From contig CM039005.1 of the NCBI GenBank assembly GCA_017499595.2, positions 496,001 to 560,000 of the forward strand: a stretch of DNA of 64,000 nt, read 5' to 3'. The translations under genes and the position numbers were made by a program. This DNA comes from Psilocybe cubensis. Lineage: Eukaryota. Under the pieces are notes generated by a model. That model worked only from the letters and a program-made list of their open reading frames with translations, ran no database searches and was not told the origin of the DNA. Of the stretch, positions 52,041 through 64,000 are shown piece by piece. How positions within the stretch are numbered: the first letter of the stretch is position 1; each line of letters starts with the position of its first letter.

Positions 52041-55000
52041 CGCTGTGGTAGATACGCAGCAGCAGCTGGCAGGCGGATTGTCGAAATAGCAGCAAGGAGA
52101 GGGATGGAGGAGGGAGGGAGAGAAGGGATGAGAAGGGACAAAAGGGAAAATTGGAATATGCTTTTATAAAGGTGGCAAGGGGGTCTCTTATCTCCCGAAT
52201 AAAATTTAGCACGGATGTTGTTACGGAAGAAATGAACCGATCCTCATCGGACTCTCCATGCGACTCGCTGTCACGCCCATTGTCATATCACTCTGCTCAT
52301 CGTTGGCCCCCCGCAGAATCCCCACCAATGCGTATTTCCGCCAAAGAGGTGTCCGGTGTCCTCCCCTTCTCCTTGGCTCCCAAGCTTCGCTTTGGCCAAG
52401 TCCCACTTGACCATCTATACAAAAAACTATACTCATTACGGTACTTACATACAACAATCTCGTCGTCGCCATCATCTTCCTAGCTGTTTCGAATTTTAAT
52501 GCCCCAAGTACTACCAATAAATACGAAATTAATACAACGTTACTTAATGATCGACATTCGACCGACAACGATCATCATCTACGACTCGTACAACTCCAAC
52601 TAATTGTAATACTCAGAAGGCGCTTGACTCCTAGAAAGGTAACAATAAACCTGAACCTATAAATGCGCCGCTTAAACTTGCTTCGCGAGCACGTTCGATC
52701 TACACGATCATTCAGATCCTCTGCAATTCCATAATCGATAACCTCGCTTTTCCCAGCTATACCAGGCACAATTAAGCAGCGTCATCCAACCTCTCGACGC
52801 TGCACAGTTTATGGTCGAGGTATGATCTGTATTTCCCGGTACCGCCATCTGCAGCGCAATCATCAAAACATCAATTAAAACGCCAAGTTTTAACTTTTAT
52901 GAACCGCGCGAACGGATGATCGATGGATGCGTGGCCTTTCTTCCTTCTTCCTTCAAGTTCTTCCTTCTTCATTTTTTCTTCTTCCTCTTTCTTCAAGCCA
53001 TACCTAAACCCAAAAAATCAACCCACATCTAATACAAGTGAGCACCTTACCACATTCCCACCCGAGCCTTATCTCCAACCCGTATAAACCATTCTATCAA
53101 CCCTTCTTCGTAAGCCAATCAAGCAAATCGCCGAATTATCCAAATAATCCATAAATTAGCAGTATACACTAGCTCCAGCTTGACTGTACTGGTACATTCC
53201 CAACCCACCATAACATAATATACCATGCCATACCATACCATACCATACATACGCATAACCCAGCACAAGCTTACAACCACCACCGACAATGGGCTGCAGC
53301 ACCAGCGCTAATCTAAGCGCTAACTTAAGCTAAGCTAAGCTTCCATTAAACACAATGACAGGGACGGGGGGGCGGGAAGGCCCAGACTCTCCAAGTGGGC
53401 TTCGCGCATTGACAGCGACGCCAGGCTTAACTAGGCAATCGCATTACCTCATTAATCCACTCACACTCGGACTCGGACTCGGACTCGGGCTTGGACTTGG
53501 ATTTGCAATGCATTTACACAATTACAACGCTAGCGCTACGTTTGACGATCGACATGAACCAGCTGTGTACCGAGTCCCGACGTTACAGTAGCGAGCTTTA
53601 ATTTAGTAGACAAAAGATATCTATAGTAAATCTAAAAAAATGAGAAACATACTCTGATATAATCCCCCAACATAATCTCGTTAGAAATCTCATCTAATTT
53701 CTCGTTTCTCGCCAAAGTCTCGCCCGAAAGTTTAAGTTGAAGTTGATAAAATAGAATAGAATAGAATAGAATAAAAGAACCGATGTCGATGATATTTGAT
53801 TGATACTGCTCAACTTCACACTTCAAACTTGAACACCACAAGCTCAAAATCAGCTTCTTCCTTCAGCTTCCCTCTTGCTTCCCTCCCCGCATGGTACCAC
53901 GCTTCCTTACTTCCTTACTTCCTTACTTCCTTACTTCCGAGACAATCGATCGATCGATCGATCATCTTCCCAACGCCCAAGCGCCCAGCGCAAGCTCAAG
54001 TAGCCGCTCAACGATAATCATTATATCAATACCCAACACCCAATACACAATCACATATTACACAGTACAGACAGACCCAATCTCAGCTCAAACTAAGTAA
54101 GCAGAACGGGACGCATCGGGTAACCATCCAGCAACCCATCTACTACCCTTCCGAGTTCCCAGTCTACCATTAACTTAACTGTAATTTGCATCTCACTACG
54201 TCACCGCAACGCCCTCGCATTCGTAGAGGTGGCGGTGTCAGTATCATTACCAGTGTCAGTGTCAGTGTCAGTGTCAAAATGTTACATATTAGAGTGTAGA
54301 CTAGTAGCTTGATGGAGCGCATGTGGATGGTTAAAATGTTCTTAATAAATAACTTGAAATCCAGTGTTATCTTCTTAATACGTAACTCTCGAAACTTCTC
54401 TGATTCAGATAATGACGATTCAGCTACTACCGACGCCACTCCTCCTCTCCTCTCCTCTCCTCTCATCGACTAGACTAGGACACGACTAGGACACGACACG
54501 ACTCGACTCGTCGATTCGGACTGCCGAATTTTCAAACCCACGCACTGAACCACCTTCGTCAATCATAAATGCAGGCTGAACAAGATTTGGAATCACAACT
54601 CGATCGTGCTACCCGGGATATTTCGATATTTCATGTTAATGATATAATGATATAGCTTTGACACTGGCAATTCAGAATCAGAGGCGATGCCGGGGACCGT
54701 GATCATGACCGACTTTGACGCACCGCACGGACGCTGAGGCTGCGGCTGAGGCTGATGACGCTGATACCTATCCAATAACAATCACAACTCCCTAGAACTT
54801 AAAACTTAGCGCTGATGCTATTGTACTACTGATAATGACAATGATACATAATGATATCATGCTATCGTACCGAGAATAACTTGTCCCAGCTTGTCCCCAT
54901 ACGCATAACGCGCCATAATGAAATGCTTCCTACTTCCTGCTTCCTGCTTCTCAACTTCAACTTCACGTTAGCGTGGTATCTGCCAACAAGTACTGACACT

Positions 55001-57214
55001 GATAAAATATTAAAAATACTGCGAACGAAAGATACTGATGTCGATGTTGACGTTGACGTTGAATCCTGATATTATAATTTATATATAATACTTACTTAGT
55101 GCTGATTGTTCAAGTTGATACCTCACACTGCCATACCTATGAAACTGATACTGACTTGATACTGATTTTGATTTTGATTCTGATATTGATATTGATACTG
55201 CCATTGACATCGATACCGTCATCTTCTCGTCGTCACCGTGACCCATGGTCGTCGTCGTCGTCGTCGTCGTTTCGGCTGTCATCTACTACACTAGTACTCA
55301 ACCACGGTCCACGACGAAACAGGTGAGAAAATTCAAAGTAAAAATAAAAAGAAAGTTGAAACATTGATTGACTAGAATTGAAATAGCCTTTACTACGCCT
55401 AAAATATCATAAAATCAAACAATATTGTATTAGCGTAGTTGGTATGGTACTGTAGTCTAAGTAAGTACCTCCCGCTCGCGTGGGGCGTGGCGCCGCCGGG
55501 CCCGCCGCGTGCTCAGGCTAGACTGCTGGTGCGCGAAGCGCCCGTACCTCATCTCATCTCATCTGATTTCATTTCATTTCATCCACCGTGACAAACCCAA
55601 TTAATCTAATCTAATCTACCCAACACACATTCATATACATCCCAATTCATTCAGGCGCCAACCCTCCCACCCGACGCCAACCCTCGCCTAGCCTAAAGGC
55701 AAATAAAAATAAGACTACTGCACCAACGCAAGCACCAACGCGGCGCGGTCCTACTAGTACCTCTTCAATCGGGTCCTACGGGATTTGATCAATGATTAAT
55801 CACTGCTCAAAGACATCTTGATCAATTCACCATCCGTTGTCCTCGTCCCGTTGTCCGTTGTCTCGCCCATTATTCACTGGCAAGTAGGTCCACGTAGGTC
55901 CTCACAAGTCCACGTCCGGCATATAACCTACTAGACTAACGATCATGCACATCACAAAAGCATAACATTACGTTTGCGGTATATAACTCATCATTTAAAA
56001 AAATACTGGATATATGTGCGGTATACCATGACTCGGACACGTCGCGATGGTATATAATCCAATTATAAGTCGCCCAAAGACGAATTCTCCAAAGTTCAAC
56101 CCAACCAACCCATCCACAAAAAAACCCACCCATTGTACGTATGGCCGTTATCACCCCCAGCCAACCCTTCTCCCATGGCACCTTCCTTTAATAGCCTATC
56201 TCCACCATGGCACCTTCAACATCCTTACAAGTACAAGTAACTACACCATCCTGACCTCAAAATCTATTAATATTCGAATGAAGCGCTTCAAATTAATACA
56301 AATAGCGTACGTGCGTCGGAAGCCTGAAGGCACATATATACATACGTCTTGGAAATTGTAGGGCTGGGCTACTTATCAAGAAGGTATCAGGTATCAGGTA
56401 TCAATTTAAAGTACTCGCTGTCGTATATAGGTATGCAGGTATGCAGGTACACTGGCGACCGGTATACAGATATACAGATATACAGGTATACAGGTAGGGT
56501 GGCAGTGCGAGGGAGGAGGTGCCGGTGAGGGTACATGTAGAAATATACAATTTTATTCATTTGTTTGCGTGCTTGTAGACTAGTATATATGTGTGTACGG
56601 GATAAGAGTCTCAGGATAAGAGTCTCGGGATAATTGAGGAGAGGGGGGGAAGGGAAAGGGTATGTGTGTGTTTATGATGGTGGGATGGGATGGGATGGGG
56701 TGTATGCAGTGATCTCATAGAAAAAAGAAACATATATAAAGACAGAAAAAGGGAAAGAAACAGAAACAGAGAAAAGGAAGAAGAATCTTAAGCAGGGCTA
56801 AAACGTGAACGTTACGTTGAAAAGTGAAAAGTAAAAAGTGAAATAGAATGTATGCATGCTAATATCGATTCCAAAAAAAAAAATGAAAATAAAATGAAAA
56901 GAAGAGAAAAGAAAAAGAAAATGAAGAGAAAAGAAGAGACGAGACGAGAATACAAGAGAGAAGATTCACTAATTCCTCGTTAAAAGATGAAATCAGGAAT
57001 TCACAGAGTCAGAAGAGGATGAGAAAGAGAAAGAGAAAAGGAAGAGAAGATCTCGCACTGGATTCATATTCCTGTATACAAAAGAACAAAAAAGAGAAAA
57101 GAGGAAGAGGAAGAAGAAGGAGAGGAAAAGAAAAGAAAGAAAGAAACAACAAGTATGTCCCTCAAAAGCCGCGCAAAAAGCGCGCCTGCACCCTCTGCTC
57201 CCGTGCATTCGCCT

Positions 57215-57874
57215 TCAAACACGCTCAGACGCAGCTCCGCCCGCGTGCTGTCCCTCCATCGGCTCCCCCCCCTCCCTCCCCACCTCACCCATCTCCACCT
57301 CCCCTCCCTCCCCCTCCTGCTCTCCCTCATTCTCCCCCTCCCCCTCATTCTCGCCCAACCCCCCCTCCTCCGGATCCAACCAACTCTCCTCAACCGTCAC
57401 CTTGACCCTCCTCACATACTCCTTCATATTCTCCCGATACAACTGCGCCGCCTCCGCATTCGCCGGGCTATTCGGGTTCGGATCATGCAGCAAACTCTGT
57501 ATACTCGTCAGAATCGCCGCGACGTCGTACGTCGGCGACCACCGGTTCTGCAGGATGTCGAGGCAGAGCTCGCCGTTCGCGTAGACGTTGGGGTGGAACA
57601 TCCGCGAGAGGAATTTGACGGTGGGCGGTTTGTTGGGGTAGGACTCGTCGAATGTGAGGAGGAGCTTGAATGTGCCGTCTTCGAAGGGGGTGTCGCCTGT
57701 TGGTAGGTGAGTGCGTGGGGGTGAGTGGGGGAGAGAAAACACACCTGGGCCGAAGATGACAGCGTTCCAGAGCATAATATTGTCGGGGAGCGGACTGCCC
57801 GAGATCCCGCCTGGCGGGTCGGACGAGAGGCGCTTAAAGTCGCGGATCAGCCGTTTCTTGCAGTTCGTCGACAT
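57215..57874 (-). CDS. RAD6: Ubiquitin-conjugating enzyme E2 Rad6/Ubc2 with a Glu/Gly-rich tail
   Basis: [16 protein letters not shown]...[18 protein letters not shown]...[46 protein letters not shown]; intron 57697-57744. Confidence 0.97.
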
Positions 57875-59115
57875 TGCTTGCTGAGTAAGATGGGTCAAGT
57901 AAGTCGGGTGGCTTTGGTTAAAGTGAGGGAGAGTGAGACAGGAGGAGAGGTGTGGTCGTGTCTGAATCGCGTGCTGTTAATGAGGGCACTGCGACTGTCG
58001 TCGTACACGTCGTCTCGTATGTGGTATGCGGTATGCTAATGATGGTATGCGATATGGATTGTAGAATCTGCAAACCCAACTTTAATTGTAGCTTCCTGTA
58101 CCAAACCACCCACAAAACATACCTTTGTACGTGCGTATATGCAAGCGTAAAGTCGTCTCAGGCGGCTGGTATGAAGAAACAAGCAAGTCAGTCTAACTCA
58201 GAAGCAGTGGCAGTGGCAGGCCTCCTCATGTCACACCCACTGACCGTGACCTGACTCCGCCGCATCTAATCTGGAAACAAACAATAGCAAAAACAATCAC
58301 TCTGCCGAAATGCCGCAAGTTGACTTTGTCGTTGTAAGTACTTCATCATTCATGTACCATGCACCATCGATTCATCCACAAGTGTTGCCCTGAACGATGT
58401 GCATGCTCTTTCACTCGAAATGGCGCTTGTTCAATTCCCCGCCCAGGTACCCGTCCCCGCCGTGCCCCGCCGTATCCTTCCGGCCCCAATGATTGCGCTC
58501 GCCGCCTATTACTGTAACCACGACACACGGTCTGACTCCCGTCGCCCGTCGCCGCTCAACGATGACAACACGCATCGTCCCGAATCCCGATACCACACGC
58601 TATACACTACCAGTTCTATGTAGACCACCCGACACGGACGCAATCGCAATTGCGCCTCCAACTACATCCATTTACCACCGTACTCATGAGTTTACCGCAG
58701 CTTTGCAATATATTTTTGTTGTGCCTATTGTGTACTTGAAATATTGTTTACCCCAGTGCCTTCAAGGTTTGTCATGATGCTGCGTGTTTACTATTTACTG
58801 ATCGACGGGACAATTCTCGTGATATCATGGTTTATTCAATGCACTCTATTCGTCATGATTGTAATGAATTTCGTAAAATTCTAACCAAAACAGGCAAAAT
58901 CTATTTATAACTGAAAAAAACAGCCTTGTTCAAAACTTCCAACCCTCTTCTGGTAACAAACTTCAAGGGTTTCCCCTCCCCCGAAGGGCAGAGAAACAAA
59001 GTGACGGGGTGAGGTACCCCGACACAAGGTGGGTTAGTAGCATACAAGGTGAGAAACGGCATAAAAAGTCAGTGGGGCAAGTCCATAGCCCTACCGTAAA
59101 GCTCCGAAAACATAC

Positions 59116-60520
59116 CTAAGCAGGTTTCTAGATAAATACAAGTCTGCGAGAGATTCAGAATACAACTTACTTGGTAAAGTTTTTGTCATTCAATGGATGC
59201 AACGGCAGCAGGCGGCATCGGTGTCAACTACAATCAAAGTCAGTCACAGTCTATTCAAAGTACAATTCTACAGACTTACCATTCCGAATCTCGCTCGACG
59301 GACGGAAATACATAGCGTCGAGGGTTTTTGCTTGTAAGAAATTTCTAGAGTCAAAGTTAGCAGTAGTTTAGGGAAAGTAAAATCAAGCCCACGTACCAAC
59401 TATCGTGTCAAAGCACTCGTGCAGATGCCCCATCCTGCTCGTCGGACGTCGATATATGGTCTCAAGGTAAATCTAGAGCCAAGGTCAGTAAAAATCCAAT
59501 AAATGAATGCCATACATACATACCTCAACGGGCACACAGCTAACAACGCCTGCTCGGCGGACGGCGATACGTCGTGTCAAGGCAAAATCTAGGGTCACGG
59601 GTCAGTGATAATTAATGCAAACCAAGTTGAAGTACACTTACCACTTGGTGTAGATCCTCACACTCGGTCGGCGGACGTCGATACATCATGTCAAAGCAAA
59701 ATCTAGGGTCACGGTCAGCTTTAATTAATGCAAAGCATGTCGAAGTACACATACCACGGGTTTTAGATCCCCACACTCGGTCGGCGGACGTCGATACATT
59801 GTGTCAAAGCGAATCTAGGGTCAAGGTCAGTCTTTGTACATTAAATAAAACTAAAACACACATACCTATGCACCAGAGGTCCAATCCCGGTCAGCGGACG
59901 GCGATACGTCGTGTCAAAGTCTAGAGTCAGAGTCAGTCTCTGTACATTAAATAAAAGTAAACCACACATACCTGTACACCAGAGGTCCAACCCCGCTTGG
60001 CGGACGTCGATACGTCATGTCAGAGCAAATCGGGGTCACCCAGACATCCAATCCCACTCGGCGGACGTCGATACGTTGTGTCAGAGCAAATCTGAGGTCA
60101 AGGTCAGTGTGAGTACATATCATAAAAGTAATACACACATACCTGAAGACCAGAGGTCCAATCCCGCTCGCCGGACGTCGATACGTCGTGTCAGAGCAAT
60201 ATCTAAGGCCAGGGTTAGTCACAACTTGTTCAACGAATGCTACAGCACACTTACCACAATAGTGAGGAGGCAGGTAACAGGCGCGCTCGGCGGACGGCGA
60301 TACGTCGTGTCAGGACTAAATCTTGGGATAAAATCAGTCTCCGTTTGGTAAATAAATGATACACAACTTACCAGCTCGCCGGAACGCGATACATAGCGTC
60401 GGGCTATGTTAACAGGGCATAAATCCTTGGATCAAAGTCAGTCTCACTTCTTCAACAAACATCACAGCACATACCAGGTCGGCGGAACACGATATATAGT
60501 GTCGAAGCAATTCCATGTCG
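59116..60520 (-). ncRNA. Candidate multi-exon repetitive non-coding transcript (tandem exon+intron array)
   Basis: 11 introns of 49-53 nt, each with a GTA(T/A/C)GT donor, CTRA(C/T) branch and AG acceptor, separate exons that share the core GACACGACGTATCG(A/C)CGTCCGCCGA. Exon lengths break the frame. The repeat array is seen directly; transcription is inferred. Confidence 0.55.
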
Positions 60521-61053
60521 AGAGGGGTAGCACACCACCATACTGACAGCATGGGTACAAAGTAGATGGATAAAAAAAACCCAATATCAGAGTTCTCTTT
60601 ATACCTTTTTCACCCCAAACTTTTTCAAAGCCCGCTCTCAGTCACGTAGCAACACTTCTTTCTAGCTTCATCATTTTTACTAGCTTCGCTTCCGAATATT
60701 TCCTCATGCCATAACTTTGCATAATAGGAGACCTTTACATCCCTTTCTCCACTCCCTCAAACGTGGAATATCAAGCCACAGTGCACCACAAGGCACAAAA
60801 CTCACTCGCCAAGTCGCAATTGGCTCAAATTCATGTCCCGTGCAGTAAAAAACCTCACTCCTATCAAGTGAAAATTGTTACGCCATTTTGTAATACCACG
60901 TACTAATCTTTGGTAAAGGTCCTCGTTTCAATTTCTACAGCACATCTAGCTCTGATTTCAATGCAGTAATAGCGTTATCTTCTCCCCAAAGTATTTTTTG
61001 GGATTACTTGCTGCAGACCGGTCAATTCGAAAGCTATGTCATCACATTCAGAC

Positions 61054-61207
61054 ACTCTGCACAGGATGCGCTGACGCTGATGCTGCAGACTCTGCGCAAA
61101 CGATGTGCTTACGCTAACGCTACAGAGTCTGCGCACACAATGCGCTGACGCTGACTCTGTGCACAGGATGCGCTGCCGCTGACTCTGTACACACGATGCG
61201 CTGGCAC
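61054..61207. repeat. Minisatellite, about 5 degenerate units of 26-37 bp
   Basis: Units resemble ACTCTG(T/C)GCACA(G/C)GATGCGCTGACGCTG. Confidence 0.85.
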
Positions 61208-64000
61208 TTGGTATTACAACATCGGCTCGCCGGCGTTCACAAGCCCAGGAACGAGATCACAACTTCCGACGCTCTAGCCTCGTTTAACTAATCGTTAAAT
61301 CTACGACAAATCGCCCACAGGATCACGATCTACGCGTGTTCATTAGGACCCTGCCCTAATTCCCCACAGGTGCGTCATCATTCCACTCTAGGTTTAGTTT
61401 GCATCTCAGGAACACAAATTCGACTGTAAAGTCTATTTTTCACCTCCGTTCCAAGTCGACGTCATTCACGACAACAACAGTTGGTTCGACTTTGCGAGAG
61501 ATGTTGGTATTTCGGATATGTTTACAACAGTACGTCCTTTGAGTCCTGGTTACTAATCTCACGGGTGACGGAATCATTCGAAAATTAGACACTTCCTTCA
61601 AACGCAGGTGCGTGCCAAAGCCGACATCCCACTCTATCGATACATCTCGTCTTACTCGTAACCCACTATTTTGAAGTGTTCCGTTCCATTTGACTTTGAG
61701 ACTAGCGCGTCAGATAATCGGGAGTTGCTATATTCGAGTGCGCCCGAAAACACATCTATGCAACAACGTCAAGGCCAGTACTCTGACGTACCGCATTTGT
61801 TATCTCACCTTTTGCTTGTGTAGACGTGCTATGACCTCAACGTAGACATTCAGGAGGTGATTTACGGTGACAACTCACCTTCATTCCAACATTTCCCCAG
61901 TTCAAATTCGCATGTCAACCACGGCGCGGATACCTCCTCGTCTCCCGATTCGTCATTCTAGCGCGTTGCAACCGTCTCATATACCTCGCTTCCAAGAATA
62001 GGCTAGTCTAGACTAGTCGGTAACGACAGCCGGAAGCTCGCAAAACTGAGCAACCAATATGAATGTGCTGCAGAACACACATACGTGGCAGCCGTTCCCG
62101 CGCCGTTTATCACTTTTTCGAGGTTTCAGGGCTTTCTGGGTACTGTATAATGTAGTATATCCCACGCCAAGCGTGTTTGTAGGTCCTTTGGCAGCGTGAA
62201 GTTGAGATAATCAAAAATACATCCGGGGCATCTCAGGAGAGATTCAAACACAAAAACAAGCGTTTGCGAGGCTTTGAAATCACCGTGAAGATCGATAATG
62301 ACTACCTAGATAATCTATAATGTGTATACGTCATGACGAATGCAGTAAACTAAGAGTACGGGTAACATTTCAAGCCACAGATGTTAAGCGCCCAAGCAAA
62401 CAGCTTCACGCAGACTGTAAATTAGCAAAACACATCGATTCCAATGCTCTATAGACACACCTCGCATACCATACATATCTCAGAGTACACTATAAGACAT
62501 ACATACACTCACATATCTCGTCAACGAACCGTCAAGTCCACAACCTCACACTCACGTACCTCCTCCGGCCCCCAATCCGCATTCCAGCCCATTTCCACTG
62601 CTTCCTTTCATTTCGGGGCATCATCCCCACTAGCATAAGACTACTCGGCTGCGGCACGGAGCGTTCCGAGACCTAGAAGCAGGACAGAAATGAGTTGCAG
62701 TGTAATGCGTCTCGAGGGAGGATATGTACGTGGCATGCGATTCTGCGTCGTTTGCGCGTTTTAAGCGGGTTGGGGTGCTTTTACTGGGTGATATGGGTTA
62801 GGTGTGTATGGGGTAAAGCTTGAAAGTACATCAGGGAACCTACAATTGAGTTTATGCGTGTATGTGATGTCGTTGTTCAAATTCGCTTTAGGAAACGTAC
62901 ATTTGCGAATTGGGCCGTTTTGAGGTATTCAGATGCTACAGTACTGTTTAAAATAGGGGTATATATTCATATTTATGCTTACCTGAGTAAGTACAAAGTG
63001 GAAATTTCAAAGATTTGCAGCGATGAACCCTTAAGCGCCGAAAGCGTTGAATCGCAAATACAACAAATAAACGCACCAAACACACGATGGTGGACCACTA
63101 ACACGCATGATACACTCACCCCTATACCATACAGCCCATTCTTCGACTCCAAAACTCCAACATCGCAAACCCAACTCACCGGACACAACACTCCTCCTCC
63201 TCGTCCGAATCTCCATTCAACCTCATTCCAACCACCTTCTTTCTCTTCACCCCTGCACGCCCACTAGCTCCAGACCCCTCGGCTATCCTAACGTAACGTA
63301 CTAACGGCGATTACTGAATTTTTTCTGCCAGTAGAAGAAGAAGCATTCTGTAGAGTCCGAGAGACGTTATACGTTGTTTTAATGCAAATTCGATGGAATA
63401 CGTACATTGGGGGGGTTGTAATGGTGCATAGGAGCCCCTGAGTAATCGAACTGAAAGTGAGTGAACGTTGGAACCAAGTCTGAACGTCGACGAAAGTTTG
63501 TGCAAGTCGGATTTCACATCAAGACAAGAAAACACAGAAACGCACAAAAGTACTATTACCATCTTCAACAAACGGACACCAGCATTGCTCTGCACCACTA
63601 ACATTGTCTTAAAGTACATTCTTCACGAAACAAAATCCTAGATATTCCACACACAAAGACAGAGCGTTGACCCGATACACACCCAAGAACCCCCTCCTCC
63701 TCCCCAAAATCGCAAAATCACCTCATCCCAATACGTTTTCCTGGCTCTTCGGCTCCGGAACGGTATTCAAATCCAAATTGCGTAAACCAACTAAAAAGCG
63801 GCGTCTCATTTGAGAAGAATTAGAATGCCTGTGTTGCAACGCGAAATCAGAACAAACCATTGGAGAGATAACGGGTATGCGTACGTACGTTTGCTGTTCC
63901 CGAGTCAATTACTAGTTTATGCAATTCGATTAATGCATGGGTGAATGTGTGTTGACGATCTACGATACGAGTTGGAATTCACTTGATGCAAGGTAGATGA

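Follow-up and report, generated by a model that had tools for sequence, protein, structure and literature searches.

A tandem exon-plus-intron array upstream of RAD6: a probably noncoding, spliced RNA with a repeated 27-nt element in its exons

What is made from a locus that keeps a dozen spliceable introns and carries no reading frame? This question is raised by an array of short exons and introns located upstream of RAD6, within the 64,000-nt stretch of DNA that was analyzed as a whole (referred to as the window; positions are counted from its first nucleotide). The array forms a minus-strand transcription unit extending from about 60554 to 58962 and is composed of 13 short exons and 12 introns of 49–55 nt (Table 1). 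It adjoins RAD6 and is situated between this gene and a divergently transcribed unit, and a second spliced, apparently noncoding transcript lies back to back with the array locus. An earlier note, made from the sequence alone, had proposed 11 minus-strand introns of 49–53 nt, and all 11 were found, with GT at the start and AG at the end, exactly where they had been placed (introns 1–11). The donors described in that note (GTATGT, GTAAGT or GTACGT) and the lengths of the intervening exons (exons 2–12 in Table 1) were reproduced, and the branch motif was identified as CTGAC in eight introns, CTAAC in two and CTGAT in one, located about 11–12 nt before the AG.

Table 1. Positions of the predicted elements of the array locus, in order of transcription. 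X1 and X2 are contig sets from RNA-like runs; remarks on joints and contig ends refer to the matches listed.
Feature	Positions	Strand	Length	Remarks
TATAAAG, TATA-like box	60597..60603	-		putative promoter element, read in the sequence; some 45 nt upstream of 60554, the 5'-most end listed for an RNA-like contig
Exon 1	60475..60554	-		diverged core copy and first ATG at 60551; 60554 is the 5'-most contig end listed
Intron 1	60426..60474	-	49 nt	GTATGT..CTGAC..AG; donor boundary is the end of a contig piece
Exon 2	60372..60425	-	54 nt	diverged core
Intron 2	60322..60371	-	50 nt	GTAAGT..CTGAT..AG; no RNA joint among the matches listed
Exon 3	60255..60321	-	67 nt	core
Intron 3	60203..60254	-	52 nt	GTAAGT..CTAAC..AG; no RNA joint among the matches listed
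Exon 4	60143..60202	-	60 nt	core
Intron 4	60092..60142	-	51 nt	GTATGT..CTGAC..AG; acceptor side is the end of the exact exon 5 contig piece
Exon 5	59972..60091	-	120 nt	two units (61 + 59 nt) with two cores, from the unit alignment
Intron 5	59921..59971	-	51 nt	donor side is the end of the exon 5 contig piece
Exon 6	59866..59920	-	55 nt	core
Intron 6	59815..59865	-	51 nt	no RNA joint among the matches listed
Exon 7	59755..59814	-	60 nt	core
Intron 7	59703..59754	-	52 nt	no RNA joint among the matches listed
Exon 8	59642..59702	-	61 nt	core
Intron 8	59589..59641	-	53 nt	X1 loose-end letters at 59589 and 59642 are the neighboring exon ends
Exon 9	59524..59588	-	65 nt	core
Intron 9	59473..59523	-	51 nt	acceptor side is the end of the exon 10 contig piece
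Exon 10	59397..59472	-	76 nt	core and partial second core
Intron 10	59345..59396	-	52 nt	GTACGT..CTAAC..AG; donor side is the end of the exon 10 contig piece
Exon 11	59280..59344	-	65 nt	diverged core
Intron 11	59228..59279	-	52 nt	joint 59227->59280 in X1 and X2
Exon 12	59171..59227	-	57 nt	decayed 13th core
Intron 12	59116..59170	-	55 nt	GTAAGT..AG; joint 59112->59168, cut movable by +3
Last exon	58962..59115	-		X1 contig pieces 58986-59112 and 58962-59040; 58962 is the 3'-most contig end listed

Transcription and splicing were examined using two sets of contigs from RNA-like runs (X1 and X2, for which the label "RNA?" is a guess) and two from DNA-like runs (X3 and X4). All four runs consist of contigs, which cannot reveal strand, transcript ends or expression level; the interval 58296-58871 has no covering contig in X1 or X2. 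The array transcript is spliced at the predicted sites. For introns 11 and 12, joints with CT..AC ends were detected in both X1 and X2, and the depth of these joints was 0 in both X3 and X4; the intron 11 joint, from 59227 to 59280, skips 52 nt. Intron 12, which the earlier note had listed as a weaker 12th intron, is real, because an RNA-like contig joins 59112 to 59168, giving an intron of 55 nt at 59116-59170. The RAD6 intron at 57697-57744 was likewise present in the joined form in X1 and X2 and at depth 0 in X3 and X4. At intron 8, the letters at loose ends of X1 contigs match, as judged by eye, the ends of exons 9 and 8, and give a precise 59588|59642 junction. The contig pieces for exons 1, 5 and 10 end exactly at exon boundaries, inside X1 and X2 contigs that continue. 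The X1 piece for exon 1 (60474-60554, with 0 other letters) belongs to a contig continuing 144 letters past the donor side, the X1 piece for exon 5 (59972-60091, with 0 other letters) occupies positions 67–186 of a 378-letter contig, and the X2 piece for exon 10 (59397-59472) occupies positions 430–505 of a 550-letter contig. Among the matches listed for the RNA-like runs, at least eight of the 12 introns have one or more boundaries supported, and at least three of the 12 have both. X3 and X4 hold the unjoined, continuous DNA, one of their contigs matching 59468-61300 with 0 differences, and the splicing that had been anticipated from the sequence is thus observed, with joints exactly at predicted introns in X1 and X2 and the unjoined form in X3 and X4.

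The spliced units are repeats of each other. Tandem Repeats Finder gave periods of 113, 106, 61 and 171 nt at 80–86% matches across 59554-60199; neighboring units are 80–86% alike, and even the closest pairs of units still differ by 1-nt indels. The array arose through the tandem duplication of a module about 110 nt long, consisting of one exon and one intron. In exon 5, the unit alignment indicates that the intron between its two units was mostly deleted, with the last few bases left. No similar array was found in 1-57000, for which Tandem Repeats Finder gave four rows with periods of 21–29 nt.

Each exon carries, 9–25 nt into its sequence, a linear and CpG-rich core of about 27 nt with the skeleton GAC...A..TATCG.CGTCCG.CGA.C. 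A search with the 27-nt core allowing up to three mismatches gave eight matches (0.00 expected), and a search of the 64 kb with the 16-nt invariant skeleton TATCGNCGTCCGNCGA allowing up to two mismatches gave 12 matches (0.39 expected). The count of 12 core copies given earlier was thereby recovered in full: all 12 skeleton matches are located inside the array, at 59295-60494 in exons 1–11, and all are on the minus strand, the sense strand of the spliced RNA. Outside the array, 0 further copies of the skeleton were found in the 64 kb. The observed/expected ratio of CpG is 1.35 for exon sequence and 0.32 for intron sequence; since the ratio for the window is 0.99, the richness of the core in CpG is not that of an island within a genome depleted of this dinucleotide. 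Core-like stretches of 20–33 nt with flanks unrelated to the array were seen in contigs of both the RNA-like and the DNA-like runs, and one loose end of a contig suggests an inverted copy of the core.

Comparison between the units indicates what stays fixed and what drifts. The mean pairwise identity is 0.90 at the 5' splice site, 0.90 at the branch motif and 1.0 at the AG, and reaches 0.80 in the exon core, whereas it is 0.48 in the intron interior and 0.27 in the exon tail. Invariant columns make up 10 of 13 in the splice signals against 2 of 30 in the intron interior (Fisher p = 8e-6), and 11 of 27 in the core against the same 2 of 30 (p = 0.0035). The signals fixed across units are GTANGT, CTRAY and AG, the CTRAY branch being present in all 11 aligned introns. 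Within the core, the column entropy at codon positions 1, 2 and 3 of frame a, the sole frame open through every core, is 0.54, 0.62 and 0.55, respectively, and no codon periodicity is detected. Both the divergence of the intron interiors with persistence of signals and core, and the constraint at the nucleotide rather than the protein level, had been suggested by the earlier note, and both are upheld by these values. This pattern of variation points to constraint on nucleotides, and not on codons or a protein. Comparing the 12 old copies with one another separates the parts that appear to be constrained, namely the splice signals and the 27-nt element, from those that appear to be free: the interiors of the introns, the tails and lengths of the exons, and the reading frame.

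The array RNA is very probably noncoding as well as spliced. In the spliced model of 997 nt (about 1 kb), every frame carries stops, and the longest ATG-led ORFs are 47, 45 and 34 aa. The lengths of the internal exons are mixed with respect to the codon (0,1,0,0,1,0,1,2,1,2,0 modulo 3), being divisible by three in five of 11, in agreement with the previous conclusion that no reading frame runs through the array. The single ATG-led frame recognized at that time was also found, starting at the first ATG (60551) and extending for 45 codons over exons 1–3 up to a stop at the second codon of exon 3. An RNA with this 45-codon upstream frame and 10 downstream exon junctions is an expected target of nonsense-mediated decay.

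No Pfam hit was obtained. For the protein searches, a 120-aa read-through frame at 59947-60309 (minus strand), which contains the core in all three frames, was used as the query. A word-based search among proteins of 66–210 aa gave four candidates, none of which scored, and with phmmer none of 1.84 billion representatives was hit at E <= 1e-10. Four weak phmmer hits (E 2.8e-6 to 7.7e-4, 31–35% identity) are unrelated proteins, namely a Gly-rich repeat protein, a 148-aa duplicate, a long repeat protein and a multiply duplicated membrane protein, and were rejected as chance sums over repeats. Against Rfam 15, no family reached the threshold, and the only match was SNORD45 (23.7 bits vs a gathering score of 42, E = 0.44). 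The statement that the array belongs to no described class therefore holds for Rfam families, for Pfam and for credible protein relatives among the 1.84 billion representatives. The RNAalifold consensus over the units contains 0 pairs, and the folds of single exons vary between units. A candidate two-helix hairpin (GACGU/ACGUC and GCUC/GAGC) was rejected, as 70.4% of its cells are paired, compared with 71.2% on average after shuffling, and the units show 0 compensatory pairs. Metagenome scans detected 0 loci either with a 22-nt degenerate core or with two 16-nt skeletons placed 85–115 nt apart.

The main rival explanation holds that the array is a transcribed and spliced relic of a gene for a tandem-repeat protein or peptide precursor, in which each exon carried a repeat of about 20 aa in frame a; the frame was then lost, and the conserved signals and core are leftovers of past selection on the protein. 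Frame a is indeed without a stop in the core of all 12 units and in the whole exon of 10 of the 12, compared with a mean of 5.5 stop-free exons after shuffling, 10 being reached in 0.65% of shuffles. Columns 31 and 40, which vary most within the core, fall on the third positions of four-fold codons in this frame, exons 1, 2 and 3 are mutually in phase in it, and an Arg-Arg pair is found in frame a of nine of the 12 units. Arg-Arg pairs resemble the dibasic processing sites in repeat-peptide precursors. As a sign of past coding, however, the openness of frame a was rejected: outside the core, frame a has three stops, no fewer than the three of frame b, and its openness therefore comes from the fixed sequence of the core. 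The core also shows no overall excess of variation at third positions in the entropy values given above, and the four-fold-degenerate sites at columns 43 and 46 of frame a are invariant in 12 of the 12 units. Since the exons vary in length modulo 3 and 1-nt indels separate even the units duplicated last, the frame no longer mattered when the units were diverging. Moreover, the first core is not preceded by any ATG in frame a, which is also interrupted by stops in exons 2 and 9 and at the exon 2/3 junction; the word-based search, phmmer and Pfam gave no protein relative; and the splice signals of all 12 introns have stayed intact through six or more frame-breaking changes of length. A relic of this kind is considered unlikely.

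Another explanation places the function, if any, in the DNA. The core would be a binding site for a protein on the DNA, or else the repeat of a dispersed family derived from a transposon; the array would act as DNA or do nothing, the spliced RNA being a by-product. Core-like stretches of about 33 nt with unrelated flanks are present in X3 and X4 contigs, some of which hold two core copies 31–38 letters apart, one loose end looking inverted; such dispersed stretches would fit a DNA-level element as well as an RNA element. The location of the array between RAD6 and the divergently transcribed unit agrees with this explanation, as does the variation of array structure between contigs, an X4 joint (59686->60058) skipping 371 nt, but joints with short sides at a likeness below 95 often stem from repeats or other organisms. 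An element acting in the DNA leaves unexplained why GTANGT, CTRAY and AG are fixed in units with interiors only 48% identical, and why all 12 cores point in a single orientation, that of the sense strand of the spliced RNA. Around the array, the hallmarks of a transposon were also not detected: 58000-64000 contains 0 pairs of inverted repeats, the 64 kb contains no further copy of the core, and the only ORFs of at least 130 aa at 58–64 kb are 59845-60351 (plus strand), which was scanned and has no Pfam hit, and 62824-63267 (plus strand). We regard this explanation as distinctly improbable.

Only slight credence is given to the locus being a gene for a small peptide, with the 45-codon frame from 60551 as its product and the repeat exons as a long and much-spliced 3' untranslated region. 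The first ATG does open a 45-aa frame across exons 1–3, but it has C at position -3, and the neighboring frames, which the searches covered, have no family match or relative; furthermore, the frame crosses two diverged copies of the repeat, the same frame has a stop in nine of 10 other units, and the conservation of the 10 downstream units would remain unexplained. That the array is a neutral minisatellite, the splice-like signals of which are common only because the copies are young, as the 80–86% likeness of neighboring units might suggest, is very unlikely, and deserves the least credence, in view of the low identity of intron interiors (48%) and exon tails (27%) against that of the signals (90–100%) and of the contig joints, which show that the splice sites are actually used.

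Instead, the locus probably represents a polyexonic lncRNA that displays 12–13 copies of a linear 27-nt element, in a manner analogous to FIRRE. Splicing would remove the AT-rich spacers and bring the 12–13 cores to a spacing of about 55–75 nt, and the likeliest way for the spliced RNA to act would be as a platform or decoy that offers many binding sites to a factor recognizing the core in single-stranded form, either a protein that binds RNA or an RNA complementary to the core. This arrangement would be paralleled most closely by FIRRE, a mammalian lncRNA in which RRD repeats within the exons bind hnRNPU. That the array RNA is under selection today, and is therefore functional, is held to be slightly more likely than not; its action as a platform or decoy in particular is tentative.

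The comparison with known systems supports a likeness of this kind in some respects and sets the array apart in others. FIRRE carries a 156-nt repeat. Its RRD repeat overlaps seven of the 13 exons in human and 11 of the 23 in mouse, and works in the RNA itself as an hnRNPU-dependent nuclear retention signal (PMC4820808). The array resembles FIRRE in being a spliced noncoding RNA with one locus-specific repeat in many separate exons: it has many spliced exons, no coding capacity, and the core in exons 1–11, locus-specificity being judged in the 64 kb. FIRRE is mammalian and has long introns with other repeats, whereas the array is fungal, has a 27-nt core, exons of 55–76 nt and introns of about 51 nt, and repeats exon and intron together as one tandem unit. 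The two have no sequence relationship, and the likeness lies in a putative working mode, not in family membership. Another mammalian RNA, NORAD, has about a dozen repeat units of about 300 nt each and is essentially unspliced. Its noncoding repeat units are reported to sequester Pumilio proteins and to form a multivalent decoy (PMC7617650). The array shares with NORAD about a dozen repeat units in a noncoding RNA, and a decoy role of the array would follow by inference, but its core is not a Pumilio-type element.

Three further systems differ more clearly from the array. The snoRNA host genes of the GAS5/UHG type are spliced noncoding multi-intron transcripts and are expected targets of nonsense-mediated decay. 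They contain conserved snoRNAs in introns, and their exons drift, whereas in the array the exons are conserved and the intron interiors drift; no snoRNA was found in the array at threshold (SNORD45, 23.7 bits vs 42). In the spliced-leader RNA arrays of kinetoplastids, nematodes and others, a unit of about 100 nt is repeated in tandem, and each copy holds a mini-exon with a GT donor behind it. Their units are transcribed one by one and trans-spliced, whereas consecutive units of the array are joined in cis, in contigs, via complete GT..AG introns. The Kex2-processed repeat proteins and RiPP precursors of fungi, to which the relic considered above would belong by its tandem short repeats and by the Arg-Arg pair in frame a, have one open frame with a signal peptide at the start and constraint at the codon level. 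The array has no frame, no ATG for frame a and no relative, no ATG-led open frame passes through its repeats, and neither codon periodicity nor codon-level constraint is apparent.

To our knowledge, functional lncRNAs are poorly documented in filamentous and mushroom-forming fungi. No exon-intron tandem-repeat RNA of fungi was found in the literature at the level of titles and the starts of abstracts, and a noncoding RNA built of repeats, a kind familiar in mammals, has apparently not yet been described in fungi. The 27-nt core provides a concrete and mutable element for finding the factor that binds it, and the array offers a case in which to ask why splicing is required of a noncoding RNA. 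Because the array lies directly upstream of RAD6 and back to back with the second transcript, a cis-regulatory role is open to a test by deletion. A more far-reaching and rather doubtful proposal is that the array encodes a fungal decoy or scaffold lncRNA that grew by duplication of exon-plus-intron modules, each module adding one single-stranded 27-nt element; the element would also be present in other, more abundant transcripts, the array would titrate or concentrate the factor reading it, and selection would keep the modules spliceable. If this proposal is true, the array would represent the first fungal counterpart of the repeat lncRNAs of the FIRRE/NORAD type, and a clean natural case of purifying selection on the splice signals of a noncoding RNA.

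On the minus strand, from about 60554 to 58962, the array was resolved into 13 short exons and 12 introns. All 11 introns listed in an earlier note were recovered exactly where it had placed them, each 49-53 nt in length and ending in AG, with GTATGT, GTAAGT or GTACGT as the donor, and re-extraction from the sequence returned exactly the exon lengths it had given. The expected branch motif was likewise identified, being CTGAC in eight introns, CTAAC in two and CTGAT in one, and located about 11-12 nt 5' of the AG. An intron size near 50 nt and a CTRAY branch motif are in keeping with mushroom-forming basidiomycetes. The exons share a CpG-rich core of about 27 nt. Its 16-nt skeleton, TATCGNCGTCCGNCGA, was found with up to two mismatches at 12 positions of the 64-kb window against 0.39 expected, all within exons 1-11 and all on the minus strand, while the full 27-mer with up to three mismatches gave eight matches against 0.00 expected. 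No second array of comparable kind was detected elsewhere within the window. Unit alignment indicated that exon 5 (120 nt) consists of two exon-plus-intron units, of which the intervening intron has been mostly deleted, leaving a 61-nt unit without an intron.

Transcription was examined by comparison of positions 57000-61300 with Logan contigs of four sequencing runs, none on record as RNA, of which two (X1 and X2) were labelled 'RNA?' by the contig tool and two (X3 and X4) were DNA-like; the contigs carry no strand, ends or expression level. In the joined forms of X1 and X2, the skipped parts have CT..AC ends, corresponding to GT..AG on the minus strand and thus indicating that the spliced RNA is of this strand. 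The joint 59227->59280 corresponds exactly to intron 11, and 59112->59168 (cut +3) to 59116-59170, the intron that had been proposed as a weaker 12th. By-eye comparison of the loose-end letters at 59589 and 59642 identified them with the terminal letters of exons 8 and 9, indicating a precise junction across intron 8. Exon 5 (59972-60091) was found at positions 67-186 of a 378-letter contig with 0 differences, and exon 10 (59397-59472) at positions 430-505 of a 550-letter contig, both contigs continuing past the exon boundaries; the piece 60474-60554 stops at the 3' boundary of exon 1 and its contig also continues. On either side of the pieces of exon 5 and exon 1, the unplaced letters amount to the summed lengths of the neighbouring exons, in agreement with the splicing model. 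Among the joints and pieces listed, at least eight of the 12 introns have one or more boundaries supported and at least three have both, introns 2, 3, 6 and 7 having none. In X3 and X4, the depth at the array joints and at that of the RAD6 intron was 0 and continuous sequence was present instead, indicating that the joined forms are absent from the DNA-like runs; over 59468-61300, the X3 contig is continuous with 0 differences.

The persistence of splice signals and core over diverged intron interiors, as the earlier note had described it, was borne out by alignment of 11 introns and 12 exon units (see table for identities). Invariant columns amounted to 10 of 13 in the splice signals against two of 30 in the intron interior (Fisher p = 8e-6), and to 11 of 27 in the core against the same two of 30 (p = 0.0035). 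This contrast indicates that the units are old and that splice signals and core are both held; recent copying cannot explain it. The CpG observed/expected ratio was 0.99 for the window, which is not depleted, 1.35 for the array exons and 0.32 for the array introns, and the differences between core copies are in large part CpG transitions in type.

Features of the array and its surroundings, with window positions and mean pairwise identity between units
Feature	Position	Strand	Identity	Remark
5' splice site			0.90	
Branch motif			0.90	
Terminal AG			1.0	
Intron interior			0.48	
Exon head			0.48	
Exon core			0.80	
Exon tail			0.27	
TATAAAG	60597-60603	minus		read in sequence
Core stretches	59790-59809, 60166-60199, 60373-60394, 59549-59580			core-like pieces in other contigs
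RAD6 intron	57697-57744	minus		48 nt; GT..AG checked
Divergent-transcript intron	60868-60918	plus		GT..AG
Divergent-transcript tandem repeats	61065-61203			28 and 37 nt
Simple repeats	56875-57360			purine-rich and C-rich

The main rival explanation, which we consider unlikely, sees the array as the still-transcribed relic of a gene for a repeat protein. In frame a, the only frame of the repeat unit open through every core, the core is stop-free in all 12 units and the whole exon in 10, against a mean of 5.5 open in shuffled exons, 10 being reached in 0.65% of shuffles. This resembled a coding relic, but outside the core three stops fall in frame a and three in a second frame (frame b), so that the lack of stops stems from the fixed sequence of the core. 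Core column entropy at frame-a codon positions 1, 2 and 3 was 0.54, 0.62 and 0.55, and two four-fold-degenerate core positions are invariant in 12 of 12 units. These flat values, the invariant four-fold sites and the lack of a frame-a stop deficit outside the core altogether indicate constraint on nucleotides and not on amino acids. As had been claimed, exon lengths are mixed (internal exons modulo 3: 0,1,0,0,1,0,1,2,1,2,0), and even the closest units differ by 1-nt indels in the alignment. The read-through frames of the array had no Pfam match, the word-based protein search found no relative among proteins of 66-210 aa, and among 1.84 billion representatives phmmer detected no match at E <= 1e-10; four weak phmmer matches were to unrelated repeat proteins and were set aside. 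No relative of the locus was retrieved, metagenome scans were without match, and a literature search on Kex2-processed repeat proteins yielded nothing relevant to it. These results show that the array gives rise to a spliced transcript of many exons that lacks coding capacity and derives from a duplicated exon-plus-intron unit, and that its constraint acts at the nucleotide level, on splice signals and a linear 27-nt element.

RNA structure does not account for the conservation of the core. Single-exon folds differ between units, the RNAalifold consensus of the units contained 0 pairs, and a proposed two-helix hairpin was discarded (70.4% paired against 71.2% in shuffles, 0 compensatory changes). 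The only Rfam match, to SNORD45, is below threshold (23.7 bits, gathering score 42, E = 0.44). It lies at 59456-59524 minus, over intron 9 and the first part of exon 10, is confined to a single unit and in all likelihood arose by chance.

A DNA-level or transposon-derived element, for which core-like stretches in other contigs (see below) could speak, is less likely than the repeat-protein relic and in our view improbable, the locus showing no local sign of a transposon. No inverted repeats were detected in 58000-64000, and the only ORFs of at least 130 aa at 58-64 kb are 59845-60351 and 62824-63267, both on the plus strand. The former is a 168-aa stop-free antisense read-through of about four and a half units, intron complements included, with no Pfam match. 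RAD6 aside, the last 11.5 kb (52500-64000) contain no ORF of at least 130 aa of obvious identity. RAD6 itself (UQ_con family, E = 2.5e-44) lies downstream of the array on the same strand, its intron appearing in X1 and X2 as the joint 57695->57744 (cut +1). Upstream of its coding region, the leader shows RNA-like joints with letters replaced (57891->58020, 58041->58123 and 58065->58122). In 57200-58300, X3 and X4 show many differences from the window, among them 57276->57338, where seven other letters replace a 61-nt stretch; for X3, this is in contrast to the 0 differences over 59468-61300. Upstream of the array, a divergent plus-strand transcript runs from about 60637, represented by two RNA-like contigs (1028 and 1039 letters), and its longest ORF is 31 aa, provided there is no further intron up to about 61726. 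The array and this transcript would then stand back to back, separated by about 80 nt, as two spliced and apparently noncoding RNAs.

A 45-aa peptide gene, again less likely than the relic, is very improbable. The spliced model of 997 nt (ends taken as 60575 and 58960) has longest ATG-led ORFs of 47, 45 and 34 aa, and the first ATG (60551) opens 45 codons closed by the second codon of exon 3, in agreement with the earlier note on its only ATG-led frame. Tandem Repeats Finder reported periods of 113, 106, 61 and 171 nt with 80-86% matches in the array middle, and a neutral minisatellite, also ranked below the relic, is scarcely credible beside the invariant columns of splice signals and core.

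We infer that the array product is a functional lncRNA, whose spliced form would display 12-13 evenly spaced core copies to a factor of matching sequence specificity. Among described systems, mammalian FIRRE comes closest, with which the array shares architecture and possibly mode of action but no sequence relationship. The FIRRE RRD repeat, present in seven of 13 exons in human and 11 of 23 in mouse, is bound by hnRNPU and keeps the RNA nuclear (PMC4820808). The titles and abstract openings of the literature searched contained no fungal counterpart of the array.

The X4 joint 59686->60058 skips 371 nt, about three units, and in the X2 550-letter contig the exon-5-like and exon-10 pieces are separated by about 190 letters against 241 nt for window exons 6-9, which suggests that unit number varies between alleles or strains. 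Loose ends were also present at 59056 and 59225 in X3 and X4.

Core-like stretches of 20-33 nt were observed amid long unrelated flanks in contigs of both RNA-like and DNA-like runs, although the contig tool warns that joints with short sides and a likeness below 95 frequently stem from repeats or from foreign organisms. One of the contigs with such a stretch reaches a depth of 786 in X1 and 670 in X2, roughly tenfold that of the contigs of the array itself; in the DNA-like runs, some contigs carry two cores 31-38 letters apart, and at 60084 a loose end resembles an inverted core. The core motif may be present at further loci. Should these stretches be real, the core extends beyond the array locus, which would fit a dispersed DNA element, favouring the DNA-level alternative, and would equally fit a cis-element common to other transcripts, favouring a role of the array RNA as a decoy.
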